Sequence record: SRR31156797_3690
DNA length: 64,000 bases
Direction: 5' to 3' (one strand)
A model generated the notes under the pieces. It had not been told where the DNA came from. It did no database searches and worked only from the letters and a program-made list of their open reading frames with translations. The translations under genes and the position numbers were made by a program. Shown here piece after piece: positions 7,821 through 16,353 of this stretch (within the stretch, counting starts at the first letter, position 1; every line of letters begins with the position of its first letter).

Positions 7821-8082
7821 GTCTGAATTTGATAAGAAATCATCCTTGTTTTCTGCATGTTTACTTTTCTATCAGACATTTCTCATTTTGATGACTGAAA
7901 TGAAAAAAGCAGACAGAAAATGAATGTAAGTTACATTTAACCATGTTTTTTTATTATTTTTTTCGCTTTATTTCTTATAAATAAAGAAAGGAAAAATAGC
8001 ATTTAACGAATGTTTGATGAGAGTAAGGTAAGTAAATACCAAGAAAACTTTCTTCCAAAGGTGTTTTTTATCGAAAAAGGGA

Positions 8083-8111
8083 TTGCTTTTTTAATAATTA
8101 TTAATTAAAAT
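8083..8111 (+). promoter_or_regulatory. sigma-A promoter of oppA; spacer holds the candidate TldR target
   Basis: TTGCTT (8083-8088)-17bp-TAAAAT (8106-8111); the spacer contains TTTAA followed by TAATTAT. Confidence 0.7.
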
Positions 8112-8136
8112 CTTATCTAACTTCAGAAATCGAATG

Positions 8137-8151
8137 ATTATTCTGAAAATT
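8137..8151 (+). promoter_or_regulatory. Putative CodY box in the oppA leader
   Basis: ATTATTCTGAAAATT, 13/15 match to AATTTTCWGAAAATT; opp genes are typical CodY targets. Confidence 0.6.
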
Positions 8152-8175: not shown

Positions 8176-9837
8176 ATGAAAAATAAATGGGCCTATGGTT
8201 TAGTAGCTGTGTGTGGCGTGGTGTTAGCCGGCTGTACAACAGGCGGAACAAATAGTTCAAGCAATGACACAGCAACTAGCGGCGATAGCAACGCAGAACA
8301 AGTATTTAACGTAGTGGTTTCACAAGAAATGCCAAGTGCGGATCTTTCATTAGCAACCGATACGATCAGCTTCAGTGCATTGAACAATGTATATGAAGGC
8401 CTGTATCGTTTGGATGCTGACAGCACACCACAACCTGCTGGTGCAGCTGAAGCAGCTGAAGTCAGCGAGGATGGACTAACTTACAAGATCAAATTGCGTG
8501 AAGATGCGAAATGGTCAAATGGTGACCCTGTTACAGCAGCGGATTATGTTTATGGCTGGCAACGGACGGTCAAACCTGAAACTGCATCAGAATATGCGTA
8601 TCTATTTTCACCAGTCAAAAATGCGGATGCCATCACAGCTGGCGATACGGATCCATCAGAGCTAGGCATCAAAGCAGTGGGGGATTACGAATTAGAAATC
8701 ACCCTAGAAAAAGCAACACCTTACTTTGATTACTTATTAGCATTCCCATCATTCTTCCCACAAAATCAAAAAGTAGTGGAAGAAAATGGCGATCAATATG
8801 CATCAACAAGCGACAATGCCGTTTATAATGGACCATTTGTCCTGACTGGTTTTGATGGACCAGGAACGGATACAGAATGGGCTTATGAAAAGAACGATCA
8901 GTATTGGGACAAAGACACTGTTAAATTACAAACGATCAACGTAAGCGTCGTGAAAGAATCCTCAACTGCCTTGAATCTTTTCCAAGATGGTCAAGCAGAT
9001 GATGTCATCCTAACAGGTGAACTGGCGCAACAGATGGCTAACGACGAAGCATTCGTTTCTCAACCAGAAGCAACGACTTCTTACTTAGAATTGAATCAAC
9101 GTGATGAAGATTCACCTTTCCGTAACGAAAATTTGCGTAAAGCAATCTCTTATGCGATCGACCGTGATGCCTTAGTAACATCGATCTTAGGTGATGGTTC
9201 AATTGCTTCAAGTGGTTTGGTTCCAGAAGGCATGACTTTCAGCCCTGGCGATCATACAGACTTCACAGAAGCAGCTGGCAGCGTCATTAGCTACGATCAA
9301 GAGAAAGCAAAAGAATATTGGGAAAAAGCCAAAGAAGAATTAGGAATCGATTCATTAGAATTTGATATCTTAGCTTCTGATACAGACTCAACCAAGAAAA
9401 TCATTGAGTACTTGCAAGACACGATCGAAAAAACATTGGACGGTGTGAAAGTCACGTTAAGTCCAGTTCCATTCTCTGTTCGTTTGGATCGTTCAAATGC
9501 GGGTGATTTTGATACAGTAATGGGCGGTTGGGGTGCTGACTATGCCGATGCAAGTAGCTTTACTGACTTGTTTACGACAGGTAACTCATACAACCGTGGT
9601 CAATGGAGCAGTGAAGAATACGATGCAGCTGTAAAAGCAGCAGGTACGACCAATGCCAATGACCCTGACAAACGTTGGGAAGATTTAGTCAATGCAGAAA
9701 AAATCATTATGAATGAACAAGGTGTCATTCCAGTTTATCAAAAAGCGGAAGCACATTTACGTGCAACAAAAGTCAAAGGTGTTGTTGCTCACGCAGCGGG
9801 CGCACAATACGACTACAAGTGGACATCAATCGAATAA
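8176..9837 (+). CDS. oppA: Oligopeptide ABC transporter substrate-binding lipoprotein OppA
   Basis: Lipobox VLAGC; SBP family 5 signature (YEGLYR...SEDGLTYKIKLREDAKWSNGDPVTAADYV), NGPF, GWGADY. Confidence 0.93.
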   Translation: MKNKWAYGLVAVCGVVLAGCTTGGTNSSSNDTATSGDSNAEQVFNVVVSQEMPSADLSLATDTISFSALNNVYEGLYRLDADSTPQPAGAAEAAEVSEDGLTYKIKLREDAKWSNGDPVTAADYVYGWQRTVKPETASEYAYLFSPVKNADAITAGDTDPSELGIKAVGDYELEITLEKATPYFDYLLAFPSFFPQNQKVVEENGDQYASTSDNAVYNGPFVLTGFDGPGTDTEWAYEKNDQYWDKDTVKLQTINVSVVKESSTALNLFQDGQADDVILTGELAQQMANDEAFVSQPEATTSYLELNQRDEDSPFRNENLRKAISYAIDRDALVTSILGDGSIASSGLVPEGMTFSPGDHTDFTEAAGSVISYDQEKAKEYWEKAKEELGIDSLEFDILASDTDSTKKIIEYLQDTIEKTLDGVKVTLSPVPFSVRLDRSNAGDFDTVMGGWGADYADASSFTDLFTTGNSYNRGQWSSEEYDAAVKAAGTTNANDPDKRWEDLVNAEKIIMNEQGVIPVYQKAEAHLRATKVKGVVAHAAGAQYDYKWTSIE

Positions 9838-9866: not shown

Positions 9867-9900
9867 AAAAGGCTGGGACAATTTCTTGTCTCAGCCTTTT
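9867..9900. terminator. Bidirectional terminator between oppA and the DUF3899 gene
   Basis: AAAAGGCTGGGACAA-TTTC-TTGTCTCAGCCTTTT between convergent genes. Confidence 0.85.
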
Positions 9901-9937: not shown

Positions 9938-10273
9938 TTAACTAGTAGCAATCATTAAAAAGAGCAATGAAAGGAATAACAAGAAGACACCAGGCCATAA
10001 CCAAAAGGCGTAACTCTGTTTGCCGACTTGGGATAATTTCAGATAATCTGTTTTATTTTTGGAAAAAGCTTTCTTCATGGAATATTGAAAATGGTCAAAG
10101 AAACCAGAAGCAAATACCCATAAAAAACCGCCAATGATCAAAAAGAACAGCGCCCACAAGAAAAGGGCATCTGAAAGAGCTGCTATGGAAAATTCATTTT
10201 TTATGGCTAACCATCCGCCAGAAATTGCGAGGCATAGGAGGGGTATGAGCCCACTACTTTTTTTTATTTTCAT
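9938..10273 (-). CDS. DUF3899-like small membrane protein
   Basis: 111 aa with 3 hydrophobic segments and an SGFFDHFQYS motif; RBS AAGGAG; typical neighbour of opp loci. Confidence 0.8.
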   Translation of the reverse strand: MKIKKSSGLIPLLCLAISGGWLAIKNEFSIAALSDALFLWALFFLIIGGFLWVFASGFFDHFQYSMKKAFSKNKTDYLKLSQVGKQSYAFWLWPGVFLLFLSLLFLMIATS

Positions 10274-10357
10274 GATCTGACTCCTTTTTAATGATTCGTA
10301 CTATGTTAATTTACATAATTATTGAATAGAAGTCAAAATACTTAAGGGGGAAACTGC

Positions 10358-11299
10358 GTGAACAGCTTTTTGAAATATTTATTGAAACGAGTGTTCTACA
10401 TGGTCTTAACATTATGGCTGATTGCCACGATCACCTTTTTCTTGATGCAATTTTTGCCAGGAACACCATATACGAATGCTGAAAAATTAAGTCCAGAACA
10501 AATTGCCTTGCTAAATGAGCAAGCAGGATTGGACAAACCGATCATTACCCAATATTGGCTTTATTTGACCAATCTACTAAAAGGTGACTTTGGGATCTCT
10601 TTCCAATTTAAAAACCAGCCAGTAGCGAATTTATTATCAGGAAGAATCGGACCTTCACTGCAACTAGGACTACAAGCGATCATCTTTGGTACCTTCTTTG
10701 GGATTATTTTAGGAACGATCTCTGCAATGAAGCAAAATACTTGGGTCGACACAACGTCTACCTTAGTGGCGATCTTAGGGCGTTCGATCCCTAACTTTGT
10801 CTTTGCCGTTTTGCTGCAATATATTTTTGCCATCAAACTAGGGATCTTGCCGATTGCCAAGTGGGAGACCTTTGCCAGCACGATCTTACCGACCGTCGCC
10901 TTAGCGATGTCGCCGTTAGCGGATTCCGCTAGGTTTATTCGAACCGAGATGGTGGAAGTGCTGCATAGTGATTATGTCGAGTTGGCACGAGCAAAAGGTT
11001 TGAGCCGCTGGGAAATTGCCTTCAAGCACGGTTTGCGGAATAGTTTGATTCCGTTATTGACGTTGTTAGGACCGCTAGCTGTCGGTTTGATGACTGGTTC
11101 CCTTGTCGTAGAAAATATTTTTGCGATCCCGGGTATCGGTGAACAGTTCGTAAAATCAATCATGACCAATGACTATCCGACGATCATGGCGGTAACGATC
11201 CTTTATTCCGCAATGTTGGTCTTTGTGATTCTTGTTGTTGATATTTTATATGGAATCGTTGATCCGCGGATCCGAGTTTCAGAAGGGAGTCGTGGCTAA
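10358..11299 (+). CDS. oppB: Oligopeptide ABC permease OppB
   Basis: PGTP, GLDKP, GDFGIS, ARAKGL EAA-like loop, VENIFAIPGIG. Confidence 0.93.
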   Translation: MNSFLKYLLKRVFYMVLTLWLIATITFFLMQFLPGTPYTNAEKLSPEQIALLNEQAGLDKPIITQYWLYLTNLLKGDFGISFQFKNQPVANLLSGRIGPSLQLGLQAIIFGTFFGIILGTISAMKQNTWVDTTSTLVAILGRSIPNFVFAVLLQYIFAIKLGILPIAKWETFASTILPTVALAMSPLADSARFIRTEMVEVLHSDYVELARAKGLSRWEIAFKHGLRNSLIPLLTLLGPLAVGLMTGSLVVENIFAIPGIGEQFVKSIMTNDYPTIMAVTILYSAMLVFVILVVDILYGIVDPRIRVSEGSRG

Positions 11300-12342
11300 T
11301 GGCAGAGAAACCTTACACAGCAAATGATGTTGCTGCCATCGATGCAGCCAAATTTCAACCGTTACAAAAAAATACCAATGAAGAGCGTGAAGCGATCGCA
11401 ACCCCCTCATTAACCTTTTTCCAAGATTCGTGGCGTCGTTTGAAAAAGAACAAAGCCGCTGTTTTCTCAATCGTTTTGTTGCTGATCATTATTACGATCT
11501 CAATCATTACCATTTTTGTCTCGCCACATGATCCGACCGCGCAAAATGTGACCTTTACAAATCTGCCGCCGAAAATTCCCGGTATCAACATCAATGGCTT
11601 AAACGGCTATGCGATGGTGGGAGGCGAGCTAGTAGATAAGTATGCAGCTGCCAATGTACCTGACGGGACATATTTCCTTTTAGGAACGGATGGATTAGGT
11701 CGTGACTTATTGAGTCGTCTATTTGTAGGGACACGTATCTCCTTATTGATTGCGTTTATCGCAGCGATGCTAGATATCATCTTTGGTGTAACCTATGGTT
11801 TGATCTCTGGTCTTTTAGGTGGACGAATCGATAATGTGATGCAACGTTTCCTAGAAATCTTATCAGGTATTCCCAACTTAGTGGTAATGATCTTAATGCT
11901 GGTAGTTTTCGAACCTGGGATCTTCTCGATCGTGGCAGCAATGGCGATCACTAACTGGATTCCAATGGCGCGGATCGTACGGGCCCAAACAATGAAACTA
12001 AAAGATCAGGAATTCGTTTTAGCCGCAACAACGCTGGGGGAAAGCCGTCTCAAGATTGCGATGAAACACGTATTACCAAATATTTCCAGCGTGATCATCG
12101 TACAAATGATGTTCAGTATTCCCTCGGCGATTTTCTTCGAGGCCTTCCTAAGCTTTATTGGGCTAGGATTAAAACCACCTTCAGCATCTTTAGGGATGCT
12201 ACTAAGCGATGGCTACAAAACCTTCTTGTTCCTGCCTTACCAAATGTGGGTACCGGCTGTGACCTTGTCTGTGATTATGATTGGGTTCAATTTGCTGGCA
12301 GACGGTTTGCGTGATGCCTTTGATCCGAAAATGAAAGAGTGA
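11299..12342 (+). CDS. oppC: Oligopeptide ABC permease OppC
   Basis: WRRLKKNK, LGTDGLGRD, EFVLAA, FLSFIGLG, DGLRDAFDPK. Confidence 0.93.
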   Translation: MAEKPYTANDVAAIDAAKFQPLQKNTNEEREAIATPSLTFFQDSWRRLKKNKAAVFSIVLLLIIITISIITIFVSPHDPTAQNVTFTNLPPKIPGININGLNGYAMVGGELVDKYAAANVPDGTYFLLGTDGLGRDLLSRLFVGTRISLLIAFIAAMLDIIFGVTYGLISGLLGGRIDNVMQRFLEILSGIPNLVVMILMLVVFEPGIFSIVAAMAITNWIPMARIVRAQTMKLKDQEFVLAATTLGESRLKIAMKHVLPNISSVIIVQMMFSIPSAIFFEAFLSFIGLGLKPPSASLGMLLSDGYKTFLFLPYQMWVPAVTLSVIMIGFNLLADGLRDAFDPKMKE

Positions 12343-12347
12343 TTGCT

Positions 12348-13394
12348 ATGAAAAAAGTCTTAGAAGTGAAAAACTTAGAAATTTCTTTTGACACCTTTGC
12401 TGGGAAAGTCCAAGCAATCCGCGATGTCAGTTTCGATCTATACAAAGGAGAAACCTTGGCGATCGTGGGCGAATCCGGGAGCGGCAAGTCCGTGACAACC
12501 CGCAGTATCATGGGGTTGTTAGCCAGCAATGCCAATGTCGATAATGGCCAGATCCTCTTCAATGGGACGGACATTTTGAAAAAATCCGAAAAAGAACTGC
12601 AAAAAATCCGTGGCAAGGAAATCGCCATGATTTTCCAAGATCCAATGACTTCACTAGACCCAACGATGCCGATTGGCAAGCAAGTGGCAGAGTCATTGAT
12701 GAAGCACAACAAAATCAGTAAAAAAGAGGGCTTGCGACAAGCGTTGGAATTACTGAACCTTGTCGGCATCCCGAATGCTGAGAAACGCTTGAAAAATTAT
12801 CCGCATCAATTTTCGGGTGGTCAGCGGCAGCGGATCGTTATTGCGATCGCGCTGATCTGTTACCCACAGATCTTAATTGCAGATGAACCGACGACTGCAT
12901 TGGATGTAACGATCCAAGCACAGATCTTAGAGTTATTAAAAGATATTCAGAAGAAAATCAATTCGTCCATCGTCTTTATCACCCATGACTTGGGTGTCGT
13001 TGCCAATGTGGCTGACCGAGTAGCCGTGATGTATGGTGGGAAAATCGTCGAAGTGGGCACCGCAGAAGAAATCTTCTACAACCCGCAACATCCATACACC
13101 TGGGGCTTGTTGGGTTCGATGCCAACGTTAGAAGGGACAGGCGATCGTTTGTACGCGATTCCTGGTTCACCGCCGGATCTGTTGGACCCGCCAACCGGGG
13201 ACGCTTTTTATCCACGAAACGAATTTGCTTTGCAGATCGATGCAGAACAGCAACCGCCGTTCTTTGATGTTTCACCGACCCACAAAGCAGCAACGTGGCT
13301 GTTAGCGCCGCAAGCACCGAAGGTAACTCCGCCGGATGAGATCTTGATTCGCTGGAAAAAATTCCAAGAAAAAAATACTCAGGCATCTGTCTAA
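12348..13394 (+). CDS. oppD: Oligopeptide ABC ATPase OppD
   Basis: [30 protein letters not shown]; alternative GTG start at 12339. Confidence 0.93.
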   Translation: MKKVLEVKNLEISFDTFAGKVQAIRDVSFDLYKGETLAIVGESGSGKSVTTRSIMGLLASNANVDNGQILFNGTDILKKSEKELQKIRGKEIAMIFQDPMTSLDPTMPIGKQVAESLMKHNKISKKEGLRQALELLNLVGIPNAEKRLKNYPHQFSGGQRQRIVIAIALICYPQILIADEPTTALDVTIQAQILELLKDIQKKINSSIVFITHDLGVVANVADRVAVMYGGKIVEVGTAEEIFYNPQHPYTWGLLGSMPTLEGTGDRLYAIPGSPPDLLDPPTGDAFYPRNEFALQIDAEQQPPFFDVSPTHKAATWLLAPQAPKVTPPDEILIRWKKFQEKNTQASV

Positions 13395-13408: not shown

Positions 13409-14347
13409 TTGGAAAAAGTTTTACTTGAAGTAAAGAATCTCAAACAATATTTTAACGTTGGCCGCAAAGACGAAGTCAAAGCCGTCGATGATATCTCCTT
13501 CCAAATCTATGAAGGAGAAACCTTTGGTCTAGTAGGTGAATCCGGAAGCGGAAAATCGACCACTGGACGGACGGTGATTCGTTTGAATAATCCTACCGGA
13601 GGCGAAGTTCTTTTTGATGGACAAGATGTTATGAAAATCAAAGGCAAGAAACCGCTGGCTGATTTTCGCCGGGAAGTTCAAATGGTCTTCCAAGATCCTT
13701 ATGCCTCCTTGAATCCACGGATGAAAGTTCGCGACATTATTGCCGAAGGGATCGATATCAACGGATTAGCTAAAAATGAAAAAGAACGTAATGATCGGGT
13801 GGATGAACTCTTGCGAACCGTCGGACTAAACCCAAGTCATGGGACCCGTTATCCTCATGAATTTTCAGGGGGACAACGTCAGCGGATCGGAATCGCCCGA
13901 GCATTAGCCGTCGATCCAAAATTCATCATTTGTGATGAACCGATCTCGGCATTGGATGTTTCGATCCAAGCCCAAGTTGTCAACTTGCTGCAAGATCTGC
14001 AAGAAGAACATAAATTGACGTACTTGTTTATCGCCCATGATTTATCGATGGTCAAACACATCAGCGATCGGATCGGCGTGATGCACAACGGCAAACTGCT
14101 AGAAGTAGGAACCAGTGATGAAATCTATCATTACGGGGTCCATCCGTATACTGAAAGTCTTTTATCAGCGATTCCGCTGCCAGATCCTGACCATGAGCGT
14201 CAACGCAAACGGATCAAATACGTCAGCGAACCAAACGATAACCAAGAACGAGCAATGGAAGAGATCGCACCAGGACATTTCGTTTATGCCACGAAACAAG
14301 AAGCCAAGATCTACCAAGAAAAGTTAGCACAAAAAAAGGGGAACTAG
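13409..14347 (+). CDS. oppF: Oligopeptide ABC ATPase OppF
   Basis: [34 protein letters not shown] start behind AGGAG. Confidence 0.93.
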
Positions 14348-14377: not shown

Positions 14378-15376
14378 ATGAAACTGGGTGTTTTAAAAGC
14401 ATACAAATTTCGGATCTATCCTAATGGACAGCAAAAACAGTTTTTCATCGAAACCTTCGGCTGTGTTCGGTTTACGTACAATCAACTGCTGGAGGCGAAG
14501 ATGGAGGAGCTGGCCAACAATGAAGCAAAGCAAGGGTTGACGCCAGCCAAACTAAAAAAGGAGTATCCTTTTTTGAAGGAGACCGATAGTTTGGCATTGG
14601 CGAATGCACAAAGGAATCTGGACCGAGCGTTTCGAAATTACTTTCAAAAGCGGGCTGGCTTTCCAAAAATGAAAACCAAAAAAAGTATTTGGCAATCGTA
14701 TACTACGAATAATCAGCAGCACACCATTTACTTTGAAGAGGATCAAATCAAGCTGCCAAAGCTCAAAACACTGGTTCCAGTAAAAAAGCATCGGGAGATC
14801 AAAGGGAAAATCAAATCGGCAACGATCTCAGCGAAAAACAATGAAGAGTTTTATATCTCGATTCTTTGTTTGGAAGAGATCACACCACTCCCGAAACAGC
14901 AAGCGTCTATCGCGGTTGTTTATGATCCGCAGCAGCTGATCAAAGCCAACCAATCGGTACCGGTCACTTGTGAGCATGCGATCCAAACAAAACAGAAGCT
15001 GACACGAGCAGAACGCAAACTTCAGGTGAAAGCTACGGCGGTCAAACGGAAAAAAATCCTTTTGACTCAGGCACGAAATTATCAGAAGCTAAAAGGAAAA
15101 GTCGCTCGCCTCTATCGTTTTCACTGCTGTCAAAAGCGGGAATTCATCGATCAAGTCAGTTATCATCTCGTAAAACAGTACGATACAATCTATTTGGAAC
15201 AAATTGCTGAAGAAACGGTTCTAAAAGCCGGTCATTACAGCATCAGCGATTGGCATCAGTTTGTTCGCAAAATCCAGTACAAAGCGCAGTGGTACGGCAA
15301 AGAACTGCGTTTTGTCACGTTGGACACGCAGGACCAACAGAAGCTAGAGCGGCTCTCAGGCGAAATGAGCAGCTGA
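14378..15376 (+). CDS. tldR: Nuclease-dead TnpB homologue (TldR-type RNA-guided repressor), oppF-associated
   Basis: IS200/IS605 TnpB N-terminus (KAYKFRIYPN..FGCVRFTYN, LKKEYPFLKE.DSLAL, GFPK.K, LPKLK); RuvC-I GIDLG replaced by AVVYD; RuvC-II Glu kept (DTIYLE); ends without the CxxC zinc ribbon or RuvC-III; strong GGAGGAG RBS 30 bp after oppF; no tnpA. Confidence 0.85.
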   Translation: MKLGVLKAYKFRIYPNGQQKQFFIETFGCVRFTYNQLLEAKMEELANNEAKQGLTPAKLKKEYPFLKETDSLALANAQRNLDRAFRNYFQKRAGFPKMKTKKSIWQSYTTNNQQHTIYFEEDQIKLPKLKTLVPVKKHREIKGKIKSATISAKNNEEFYISILCLEEITPLPKQQASIAVVYDPQQLIKANQSVPVTCEHAIQTKQKLTRAERKLQVKATAVKRKKILLTQARNYQKLKGKVARLYRFHCCQKREFIDQVSYHLVKQYDTIYLEQIAEETVLKAGHYSISDWHQFVRKIQYKAQWYGKELRFVTLDTQDQQKLERLSGEMSS

Positions 15377-15477
15377 TCTGCTTGAACTGGAAGGAACGCC
15401 AGGGATCGCCTAGGGTATAGAAAAAATCTTTATGATTTTTGTTTCTAGGAACCACGTTCACTAATTATGATTAACCA
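15377..15477 (+). ncRNA. omega-RNA-like guide RNA of the TnpB/TldR (scaffold to 15461, guide from 15462)
   Basis: CTGG/CCAG stem whose loop GAACG (15394-15398) pairs with CGTTC (15455-15459) as a pseudoknot; CCTAGGG/TTCTAGG and AAAAATC/GATTTTT stems; scaffold ends in GTTCAC like IS605-group right ends; guide TAATTATGATTAACCA; exact ends inferred. Confidence 0.75.
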
Positions 15478-15478
15478 G

Positions 15479-15522
15479 CAACCCCCTGCCAAACTATGGT
15501 TTAGCAGGGGGTTGTATTTTTT
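15479..15522. terminator. Terminator closing the guide RNA, shared with the convergent NrtR-like gene
   Basis: CAACCCCCTGCCAAAC-TATG-GTTTAGCAGGGGGTTG then TATTTTTT. Confidence 0.85.
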
Positions 15523-16353
15523 TTACATTTTATCACCTAAAAATGCGTCATTTAAGCGATAGATCTTTGAGGGACGCCCGATGCCAACGGGCTTTTCGCC
15601 GACCTCCGTAAAATATTGAAGCATGGATTTTTTAAAGTTGGAATGATCGATCATTTTAAAATCGATCCCTAAAAACTTGGCGAATACTTTACGGGCTTCC
15701 GTGATCGTAAAGTCTTTGCCTAACACAAGAAGCACTTGCGGCTCGTGCTCCATCTTATTGGCAACCCGTTTGAAGGCTTTGAGAATGATCGCGCTGTGGT
15801 CAAAAGCCAGCGTATCTTTTCCAACAGAGGCACCAGTCACCAGGTCAAGAATGATCTCGATCTCACCGCTGGTCAAATAGATTTGATTGGCTTTTCTTTC
15901 CAGAGAAAACCAGCGTACCTGATTCGCATCGTCCCCAGCACTTAAGGGCTCTTCACCAATAAATGCCAAATAGCTGACGGTGATTACCCACCCACGTGGA
16001 TCACGACCAGGGGTGCTGAAGGTGTGCAGCTGTTCGATGTTTTGTTTGGAGATAGTGACCCCGATCTCTTCTTGGGTCTCACGGATCACACTTTGACCTG
16101 TCGATTCATTCGGATTGACGAAGCCCCCCGGCAATGCCCAAGAATTGCGGAAGGGATGGCCTTTTCTTTGGATCAGCGCAATTTTGAGTTGTTCTTCTTC
16201 TTTGTTGTAACACATCAACACCATATCGACGGTTACGGAGGGTTTCTCGTATTTCGGCTGATCTTGTGCCTGATACCACGTAAGAAAGTCTGCTTCAGAA
16301 GCTTCTTTCTCATAGTAGTGTTTTTCAGCTGATTTTGAGGTAAATTCTTTCAT
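15523..16353 (-). CDS. NrtR-like Nudix hydrolase / wHTH transcriptional regulator
   Basis: PSVTVD, WALPGGFV..NES....IRETQEEIG Nudix box, RDPRGW, LAFDH, C-terminal NFKK and GRPSKIYR. Confidence 0.85.
   Translation of the reverse strand: MKEFTSKSAEKHYYEKEASEADFLTWYQAQDQPKYEKPSVTVDMVLMCYNKEEEQLKIALIQRKGHPFRNSWALPGGFVNPNESTGQSVIRETQEEIGVTISKQNIEQLHTFSTPGRDPRGWVITVSYLAFIGEEPLSAGDDANQVRWFSLERKANQIYLTSGEIEIILDLVTGASVGKDTLAFDHSAIILKAFKRVANKMEHEPQVLLVLGKDFTITEARKVFAKFLGIDFKMIDHSNFKKSMLQYFTEVGEKPVGIGRPSKIYRLNDAFLGDKM

Follow-up and report, generated by a model that had tools for sequence, protein, structure and literature searches.

The window analysed here, a stretch of 64,000 nucleotides (nt) from sequence record SRR31156797_3690, carries directly behind oppF, the last gene of an oppBCDF set, an open reading frame (ORF) of 332 amino acids (aa) that resembles the transposon protein TnpB. 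The question that this locus raises is whether such a gene is an active RNA-guided nuclease, the remnant of an insertion sequence (IS), or a regulator that the host has made its own. As argued below, the ORF is very probably the oppF-associated TldR (TnpB-like nuclease-dead repressor) of a casseliflavus-group Enterococcus, that is, a domesticated TnpB that no longer cleaves DNA but still binds it under RNA guidance. The homology, the loss of the catalytic part, the synteny, the purifying selection, the conserved guide RNA (gRNA), and the conserved site composed of a target-adjacent motif (TAM) and a seed were computed here, whereas RNA binding, absent cleavage, and a repression of oppA of about 40-fold are transferred by analogy from what the available text of two papers reports for relatives (Wiegand et al. 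2023, bioRxiv 10.1101/2023.11.30.569447; Xiao et al. 2026, bioRxiv 10.64898/2026.09.22.753285).

A TnpB homologue without its catalytic part

The initial annotation had read the gene as a host-exapted TnpB, likely to be mislabeled as a transposase, in which the RuvC-I Asp is replaced and the zinc ribbon and RuvC-III are absent, and the profile, alignment, and structure comparisons bear it out on each of these points. The protein scores 139 bits with the NCBIfam profile guided_TnpB (cutoff, 100) and 229.8 bits with IS200_TnpB, covering profile positions 2 to 309 of 360 and remaining below the 425-bit cutoff. Among the Pfam domains, HTH_OrfB_IS605 is present (E = 3.6e-16), while OrfB_IS605 (RuvC) and the TNB zinc ribbon are found at subthreshold level only, the latter over profile positions 1 to 22 of 60. 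Structures of ISDra2 TnpB were matched by phmmer (E of about 4e-33), and they also rank on top when the AlphaFold2 model, obtained from a 16-sequence alignment with a pLDDT of 88.5, is compared by Foldseek, the best match being 8h1j (E = 1.9e-23; TMq, 0.64). A sequence search of the PDB found no entry for a TldR, TnpB structures being the best matches.

To examine the catalytic residues, we used MAFFT to align 19 orthologues with two TnpB paralogues that are intact (382 and 380 aa) and come from related genomes. Where the paralogues have the Asp of GIDLG, the protein of the window has V181, within SIAVVYD; the RuvC-II Glu is retained (IYLEQI); and the sequences of all clade members end too early to include the CxxC...CxxC zinc finger or the RuvC-III Asp. 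Judged from this alignment, the RuvC DED triad is disrupted, with the first Asp replaced by V181, the Glu kept, and the third Asp absent. The pairwise HMMER alignment to ISDra2 TnpB places D183, and not V181, under the catalytic Asp; since the residue at this position varies (D, H, C, or S) among the clade members in the MAFFT alignment, we do not regard D183 as a conserved catalytic residue.

These data bear directly on the possibility that the gene belongs to a live transposon and encodes a TnpB that is still active as an RNA-guided nuclease. The most similar proteins are indeed named "RNA-guided endonuclease TnpB family protein" or "transposase" in public records, and both the retained Glu and the pairwise placement of D183 would agree with such a function. 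Nevertheless, we consider it extremely improbable, in view of the IS200_TnpB score below the cutoff, the missing zinc finger and third Asp, and the variability at D183. Moreover, there is no tnpA beside tldR and no room for transposon ends, as the initial annotation had also stated for tnpA and an IS left end; tldR is flanked by oppF, at a distance of 30 nt, and by a convergent NUDIX/NrtR gene; genomes carry the gene once, in a fixed location; and relatives showed no plasmid interference according to the available text of Wiegand et al. 2023.

The residues that contact nucleic acid in a characterized relative are well preserved. Eleven TAM or heteroduplex contact residues have been published for Efa1TldR of E. 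faecalis (L4, S74, L75, N79, Q81, V82, N114, Q116, L167, Y307, and W311), and we mapped them through the Enterococcus faecalis-type locus L155, whose protein has all 11 at the published numbers. Ten of them are identical in the protein of the window, including the TAM readers Q116 (here Q113) and L75 (here L72), and the remaining one, V82, is replaced by R79.

Guide RNA and terminator downstream of tldR

The initial annotation had only inferred the guide and its target, both of which could be located here. A conserved block, AACTGG..CCAGGGATCGCCTAGGG.ATAGAAAAA..TTTTGTTTCTAGGAA..CAC, then TAATTAT.., is found 3' of every orthologue, and the corresponding alignment of 19 loci contains 52 invariant columns. 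The predicted guide TAATTATGATT starts directly after the conserved ...GTTCAC junction, and the 5' end of the scaffold would fall at about position 15362 if the published scaffold length of 97 to 100 nt applies here. The scaffold end followed by a TAATTA... guide is recognizable in 52 of the 58 loci from named genomes. Further downstream, RNA folding identified an intrinsic terminator that a simple scan had missed, consisting of a 38-nt hairpin (15478 to 15515; -27.2 kcal/mol; z = -5.5; none of 200 shuffled sequences equally stable) and a U-tract. As regards the scaffold itself, RNAalifold found a compensatory change in 1 of 16 pairs, with a poorly aligned variable stem-loop, and the fold of the single sequence gave a z of -1.1, so that the scaffold structure receives no independent support.

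The position of the gRNA coincides with that of Rfam family RF02841, Ref70 ("Enterococcus sRNA 70"), which Rfam lists as a plain small RNA (sRNA). In the window the match (15381 to 15473) reaches 36 bits (E = 0.0019), below the 115-bit gathering threshold, whereas in two E. faecalis-type loci, directly 3' of tldR (L155, 9113 to 9222; L153, 402 to 523, minus strand), it reaches 117.6 and 124.1 bits. The orphan family Ref70 thus seems to represent the guide RNA of TldR in E. faecalis-type loci, and the gRNA of the window is, by sequence comparison, a diverged homologue of it. A full-text literature search for "Ref70" together with "Enterococcus" returned no relevant paper.

In two assemblies from metatranscriptome libraries, contigs break within the gRNA scaffold (window positions 15400 to 15429); the mean word depth on the opp-tldR side and on the other side of the breaks is 335.6 versus 38.5 in one assembly and 93.5 versus 86.1 in the second, values that come from contigs and are uninterpretable without the reads.

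A conserved candidate target in the predicted oppA promoter

A site fitting the guide is located upstream of oppA. The TAM TTTAA, followed by the predicted target TAATTATTAAT (8090 to 8105, plus strand), lies 71 to 86 nt upstream of the oppA ATG and fills the 17-nt spacer of a predicted promoter. The TAM is invariant in all 19 aligned oppA leaders, as is the 11-mer TTTAATAATTA, and the leaders are no longer alignable beyond this region on the upstream side; a TTG(C/A)(T/A)T element precedes the TAM at a fixed distance in the same 19 leaders, and the predicted -10 element is conserved as TAAAAT, TACAAT, or TAAACT. The -35 hexamer of the window, TTGCTT, matches TTGACA at 3 of 6 positions and was not listed by a simple promoter scan.

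Exactly one site made of TTTAA and a 6-nt seed occurs by the linked oppA, approximately 80 to 86 nt upstream, in each of the 17 opp-linked loci with a recognizable guide and also in the window. The motif also occurs in E. faecalis-type loci, but there on the opposite strand and downstream of the promoter, in agreement with the layout published for E. faecalis V583. It follows that the motif goes with the guide and is not tied to one position of the promoter. The arrangement of the window, with the target on the top strand and inside the promoter spacer, is the one that the papers, in their available text, describe for E. faecium, whereas the E. faecalis-type target lies on the bottom strand in the 5' untranslated region.

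The oppA leader contains a second conserved element, placed between the predicted promoter and the ribosome-binding site, namely the palindrome CTTCAGAAA...TTCTGAAAA (8121 to 8149), which can also be read as CTTCAGAAA...TTCTGAAAATT over 8121 to 8151. Its right half, the 15-mer ATTATTCTGAAAATT, fits at 13 of 15 positions what we take to be the CodY-box consensus. This resemblance suggests that oppA may also be under CodY control.

Distribution, synteny, and selection

For the genome-wide comparisons, the nearest genome (G001) stands in for the window's own assembly; it encodes an identical protein in a single copy. The closest named relatives are Enterococcus casseliflavus NBRC 100478 (98%) and Enterococcus innesii GAL7 (99%, frameshifted). 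The gene is present in all eight species of the GTDB genus, with an intact frame in seven of them. The order oppA, DUF3899, oppBCDF, tldR is kept in 18 of 20 ten-kb loci, which represent eight or more genera, and in all of five further loci, E. faecalis-type ones included, for a total of 23 out of 25 within the Enterococcaceae. Across the 58 loci from named genomes, tldR is preceded by the orthologous oppF in 43 and by a paralogous oppF (48 to 50% identity) in 5; no oppF is found within 1.5 kb in 9, and 1 has no flank. Hence, 9 of the 57 loci with a usable flank combine tldR and gRNA without an oppF-type gene upstream.

Two species among these deserve a separate mention. In Enterococcus asini and Enterococcus diestrammenae, a gene for a GNAT acetyltransferase lies upstream of tldR instead, and a TAM plus seed site occurs approximately 220 to 240 nt upstream of a gene for a distant OppA-family binding protein (28 to 29% identity). 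The loci considered in this observation on absent or paralogous oppF are L047, L049, L070, L072, L077, L078, L085, L087 to L089, and L094, together with L139 and L140.

The ratio of nonsynonymous to synonymous substitution rates (dN/dS, NG86) of tldR ranges from 0.027 to 0.175 in eight species pairs, and from 0.027 to 0.096 in the six pairs with dS below 1, compared to 0.011 to 0.029 for oppF. On the basis of these ratios, tldR is under purifying but more relaxed selection, and not in neutral decay. The fixed linkage to oppF and the host exaptation proposed in the initial annotation, which had named patchy, frameshifted orthologues evolving neutrally as the signature of a decaying IS, are therefore in line with the comparative data, apart from the single frameshifted copy.

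Points against the assignment, and a decaying insertion sequence as an alternative

Several observations weigh against the assignment proposed here. First, tldR of E. innesii GAL7 (G004) is frameshifted by a change from A7 to A6, so that its frame ends at 228 aa. Second, the dN of tldR is 3 to 4 times that of oppF and the neighboring genes. Third, according to the available text of Xiao et al. 2026, deletion of tldR and the gRNA in E. faecalis V583 did not derepress oppA in standard culture, repression being seen on overexpression only. Fourth, the matches in RNA libraries are assembled contigs only, which cannot show transcription, and a run of raw reads gave 0 reads. Fifth, the choice of the -35 and -10 elements has a competitor in the promoter pair listed by the scanner, TCGAAA-16-AATAAT (8071 to 8098), which overlaps the target as well. 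Sixth, guide and target pair over 7 nt only, and guide position 8 is mismatched in every locus of the window's subclade. Finally, the TAM with a 7-nt seed occurs three times in G001, as often as a reversed control pattern (three), and the specificity of the target consequently rests on conservation and not on rarity.

The frameshift site of E. innesii GAL7 maps to 8750 to 8779 of locus L041 (the same as L059), and the corresponding A7 run of the window is at 15050 to 15056. Either an error in sequencing or a recent loss could explain the frameshift. Phase variation at this run was considered and rejected, because the run is absent in three of the seven other loci of the genus.

The first three of these points would also be expected if the gene were a decaying IS200/IS605 remnant, that is, a truncated and functionless tnpB pseudogene stranded by oppF, and decay would likewise predict the C-terminal truncation and the degenerate RuvC-I motif. 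We nonetheless regard this explanation as very improbable. The frame is intact in seven of the eight genomes of the genus and across several other genera, the dN/dS values (0.03 to 0.18) are low, and the whole clade is truncated at a shared point and lacks the zinc finger. In addition, the scaffold has 52 invariant columns in 19 loci, and the guide seed and the TAM-flanked target are both invariant. A domesticated, RNA-guided TldR therefore remains our preferred reading of the locus.

Search for other targets

The mismatch at guide position 8 raises the question of whether the oppA promoter is the main target. This position (15469 in the window) is a G, or an A in some genera, throughout a subclade that comprises the casseliflavus/gallinarum group, Tetragenococcus, the faecium/durans group, and others, while target position 8 (8102) is always a T; in the E. 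faecalis-type loci L152 to L155, guide position 8 is a T. A functional TldR could thus have its main target elsewhere, either at the oppB promoter site (10313 to 10326), where it would be autoregulatory, or at a locus matching guide positions 8 and 9 (GA), two conserved bases that have no pairing partner at oppA.

Some data would fit this proposal. The G at position 8 is never paired at the oppA target in the subclade of the window; the oppB-proximal site, TTCAA followed by TAATTATGT, fits eight of nine guide positions, G8 included; TTTTA followed by TAATTATGA, in which the TAM is a variant one, matches the guide over the full 9 nt and is found between genes, in orthologous places, in two of five genus genomes; and additional putative targets are mentioned in the available text of Wiegand et al. 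2023. Against it, the TAM of the oppB-proximal site is noncognate, being off by one base, and the site is conserved within the genus of the window only and differs in other genera. No perfect site of TAM plus 9 nt was found in the five genus genomes, where the match counts equal those of the reversed-pattern control. In addition, the downstream opp genes of E. faecalis V583 were largely unchanged on TldR overexpression, as far as the available text of Xiao et al. 2026 goes. A main target other than oppA is accordingly judged improbable.

The individual candidates were also evaluated as conserved targets, and all were rejected. The oppB-proximal site, for its lack of conservation outside the genus, is probably no target. 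Two further sites of TAM plus 7 nt in G001, one 3' of ackA and the other inside a permease gene, were discarded, and so was TTTAATGATTATGA, present in three of five genomes but in nonorthologous places. The TTTTA-TAATTATGA site, orthologous in only two of five genomes, is probably due to chance; where it occurs (L146 and L148, position 1501), a divergent gene of 259 to 264 aa starts approximately 67 nt away. The site in the oppA promoter is the only one common to all five genus genomes, and we conclude, from its conservation, that it is the single conserved target, at the predicted level. The initial annotation had expected the protein, the guide, and candidate targets within 7.5 kb; the compactness stands, with 7.4 kb from the guide (15462) to the target (8090), but the plural does not, as only the oppA promoter site is conserved.

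It is also possible to hypothesize, albeit as a rather unlikely idea, that the mismatch at position 8, which caps the pairing at 7 bp, is a selected, "weak-by-design" setting that would make the repression of oppA dose-sensitive to readthrough of the operon, or that the conserved unpaired guide bases (GA..AACC) serve another purpose, for instance as a processing signal or in the recognition of a further target.

Organization of the locus

The features of the locus are collected in Table 1. Downstream of the opp genes, tldR, and the gRNA, the order continues with the convergent NUDIX/NrtR gene and metG. The antisense DUF3899 gene between oppA and oppB has a counterpart in E. faecalis V583, where an interruption of this type is described in the available text of Xiao et al. 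2026. The gap of 30 nt between the oppF stop and tldR, both on the same strand, contains no terminator-like site according to the terminator scan, and it includes an AGGAGG sequence directly before the tldR ATG; the initial annotation had described the same intact ORF, the same gap without a terminator, and a strong ribosome-binding site, all of which agree with the coordinates and the scan, although the spacing between AGGAGG and ATG is only about 2 nt.

Table 1. Features of the opp-tldR locus in window coordinates
Feature	Position	Strand	Basis or remark
Predicted -35 element of the oppA promoter, TTGCTT	8083..8088	+	Putative; read from the sequence
TAM, TTTAA	8090..8094	+	Same as the published Efa1TldR TAM (Xiao et al. 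2026, available text)
Predicted gRNA target, TAATTATTAAT	8095..8105	+	Guide positions 1-7 match; positions 8 and 10 mismatched
Predicted -10 element, TAAAAT, 17 nt after the -35 element	8106..8111	+	Putative; from the sequence
CodY-box-like 15-mer, ATTATTCTGAAAATT, right half of the palindrome	8137..8151	+	Conserved in oppA leaders of other genera
oppA, substrate-binding protein, predicted regulated gene	8176..9837	+	Pfam PF00496 SBP_bac_5, E = 1.1e-85
Terminator-like hairpin 3' of oppA	9867-9900		Scan
DUF3899 gene, antisense between oppA and oppB	9938..10273	-	PF13038, E = 3e-11
Near-cognate site, TTCAA followed by TAATTATGT, in promoter-like region of oppB (10310-10339)	10313..10326	-	Sequence match
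oppB	10358-11299	+	Pfam BPD_transp_1, OppC_N, ABC_tran, and oligo_HPY cover the oppBCDF set
oppC	11299-12342	+	Pfam, same oppBCDF set
oppD	12339-13394	+	Pfam, same oppBCDF set
oppF	13409-14347	+	Pfam PF00005 ABC_tran and oligo_HPY
tldR, nuclease-dead TnpB homologue, 332 aa, frame intact	14378..15376	+	Profiles, MAFFT alignment, AlphaFold2 model, Foldseek
gRNA scaffold (conserved core, 15385-15461)	about 15362-15461	+	Alignment of 19 loci; Rfam Ref70
Guide, TAATTATGATT (first 9 nt, 15462-15470)	15462..15472	+	Directly after the conserved ...GTTCAC junction
Intrinsic terminator, hairpin (15478-15515) and U-tract	15478..15525	+	RNA fold

Proposed mechanism

Given that the gap behind oppF has no terminator, tldR is probably read through from oppBCDF. 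The transcript would then run on into the scaffold of about 100 nt and the guide of 9 to 11 nt (15362 to 15472) and end at the strong terminator. The complex of TldR and gRNA may recognize TTTAA and form a 7-nt pairing (TAATTAT) with the top strand of the spacer that separates the predicted -35 and -10 elements of oppA, where it would block RNA polymerase. Less of the substrate-binding protein that belongs to the operon would then be made, oppBCDF would retain its own promoter, and the permease might thereby be freed for other OppA paralogues, as in the published model.

Relation to known TldR and TnpB systems

The system is real and correctly interpreted, yet it is already known, and the initial annotation had rightly placed it in a described class, because the oppF-associated clade has been characterized biochemically, genetically, and structurally (Wiegand et al. 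2023; Xiao et al. 2026) and an E. casseliflavus homologue is among the proteins tested by RNA immunoprecipitation sequencing (RIP-seq). In the available text of the first of these papers, which defined the clade in Enterococcus, gRNA binding is demonstrated by RIP-seq, and a figure legend names EcaTldR, the homologue from E. casseliflavus; the guides measure 9 to 11 nt, and the specificity is determined by the TAM and a seed of approximately 6 nt; programmable repression is reported for TldR relatives; and the predicted targets overlap oppA promoter elements. The available text of the second paper adds the repression of oppA in V583 cited above, a structure solved by cryo-electron microscopy, and a survey of 2,125 assemblies.

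With the oppF-associated proteins Efa1TldR, EcaTldR, and EceTldR, the gene of the window shares the position as the last gene after oppF and the complete order of oppA, DUF3899, oppBCDF, tldR, and gRNA. It further shares the degenerate RuvC, the truncated C terminus, the scaffold of about 100 nt, the short guide starting with TAATTAT, the TTTAA TAM, the target upstream of oppA, and all but one of the contact residues. Different from the E. faecalis-type TldR, to which it is only about 41% identical, the protein of the window has a more eroded RuvC-I (AVVYD compared to GITLG or GICSS), and its guide carries at position 8 a G, mismatched to the target, in place of a T.

The likeness to ISDra2 TnpB (PDB 8h1j, 8exa, and 8bf8) extends to the WED/REC/RuvC fold, a guide RNA encoded at the 3' end of the gene and past it, and a 5-nt T-rich TAM. 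Compared to IS200/IS605 TnpB, however, the protein lacks the RuvC-I Asp, the zinc finger, and the RuvC-III Asp, its gene is single, fixed, and without tnpA or transposon ends, and the guide has 9 to 11 nt instead of 16. The fliC-associated TldR of prophages in Enterobacteriaceae is similar in that a TnpB without nuclease activity uses a guide RNA to repress a promoter of the host, but it represents an independent, prophage-borne lineage with a 16-nt guide and the host fliC as its target, according to the available text of Wiegand et al. 2023.

Significance

The locus poses no new question beyond those of Wiegand et al. 2023 and Xiao et al. 2026, as far as their available text extends, and its value lies in annotation rather than in discovery, in that a probable host regulator with a guide RNA takes the place of the "transposase" label. 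Three local details are worth recording: the layout with the target on the top strand in the promoter spacer, the fixed mismatch at guide position 8, and Ref70 as the apparent gRNA of E. faecalis-type loci. For the family, the locus offers a compact and fully mapped, though predicted, example of promoter-spacer targeting, in which a span of 7.5 kb includes the protein, guide, TAM, target, promoter, and terminator.

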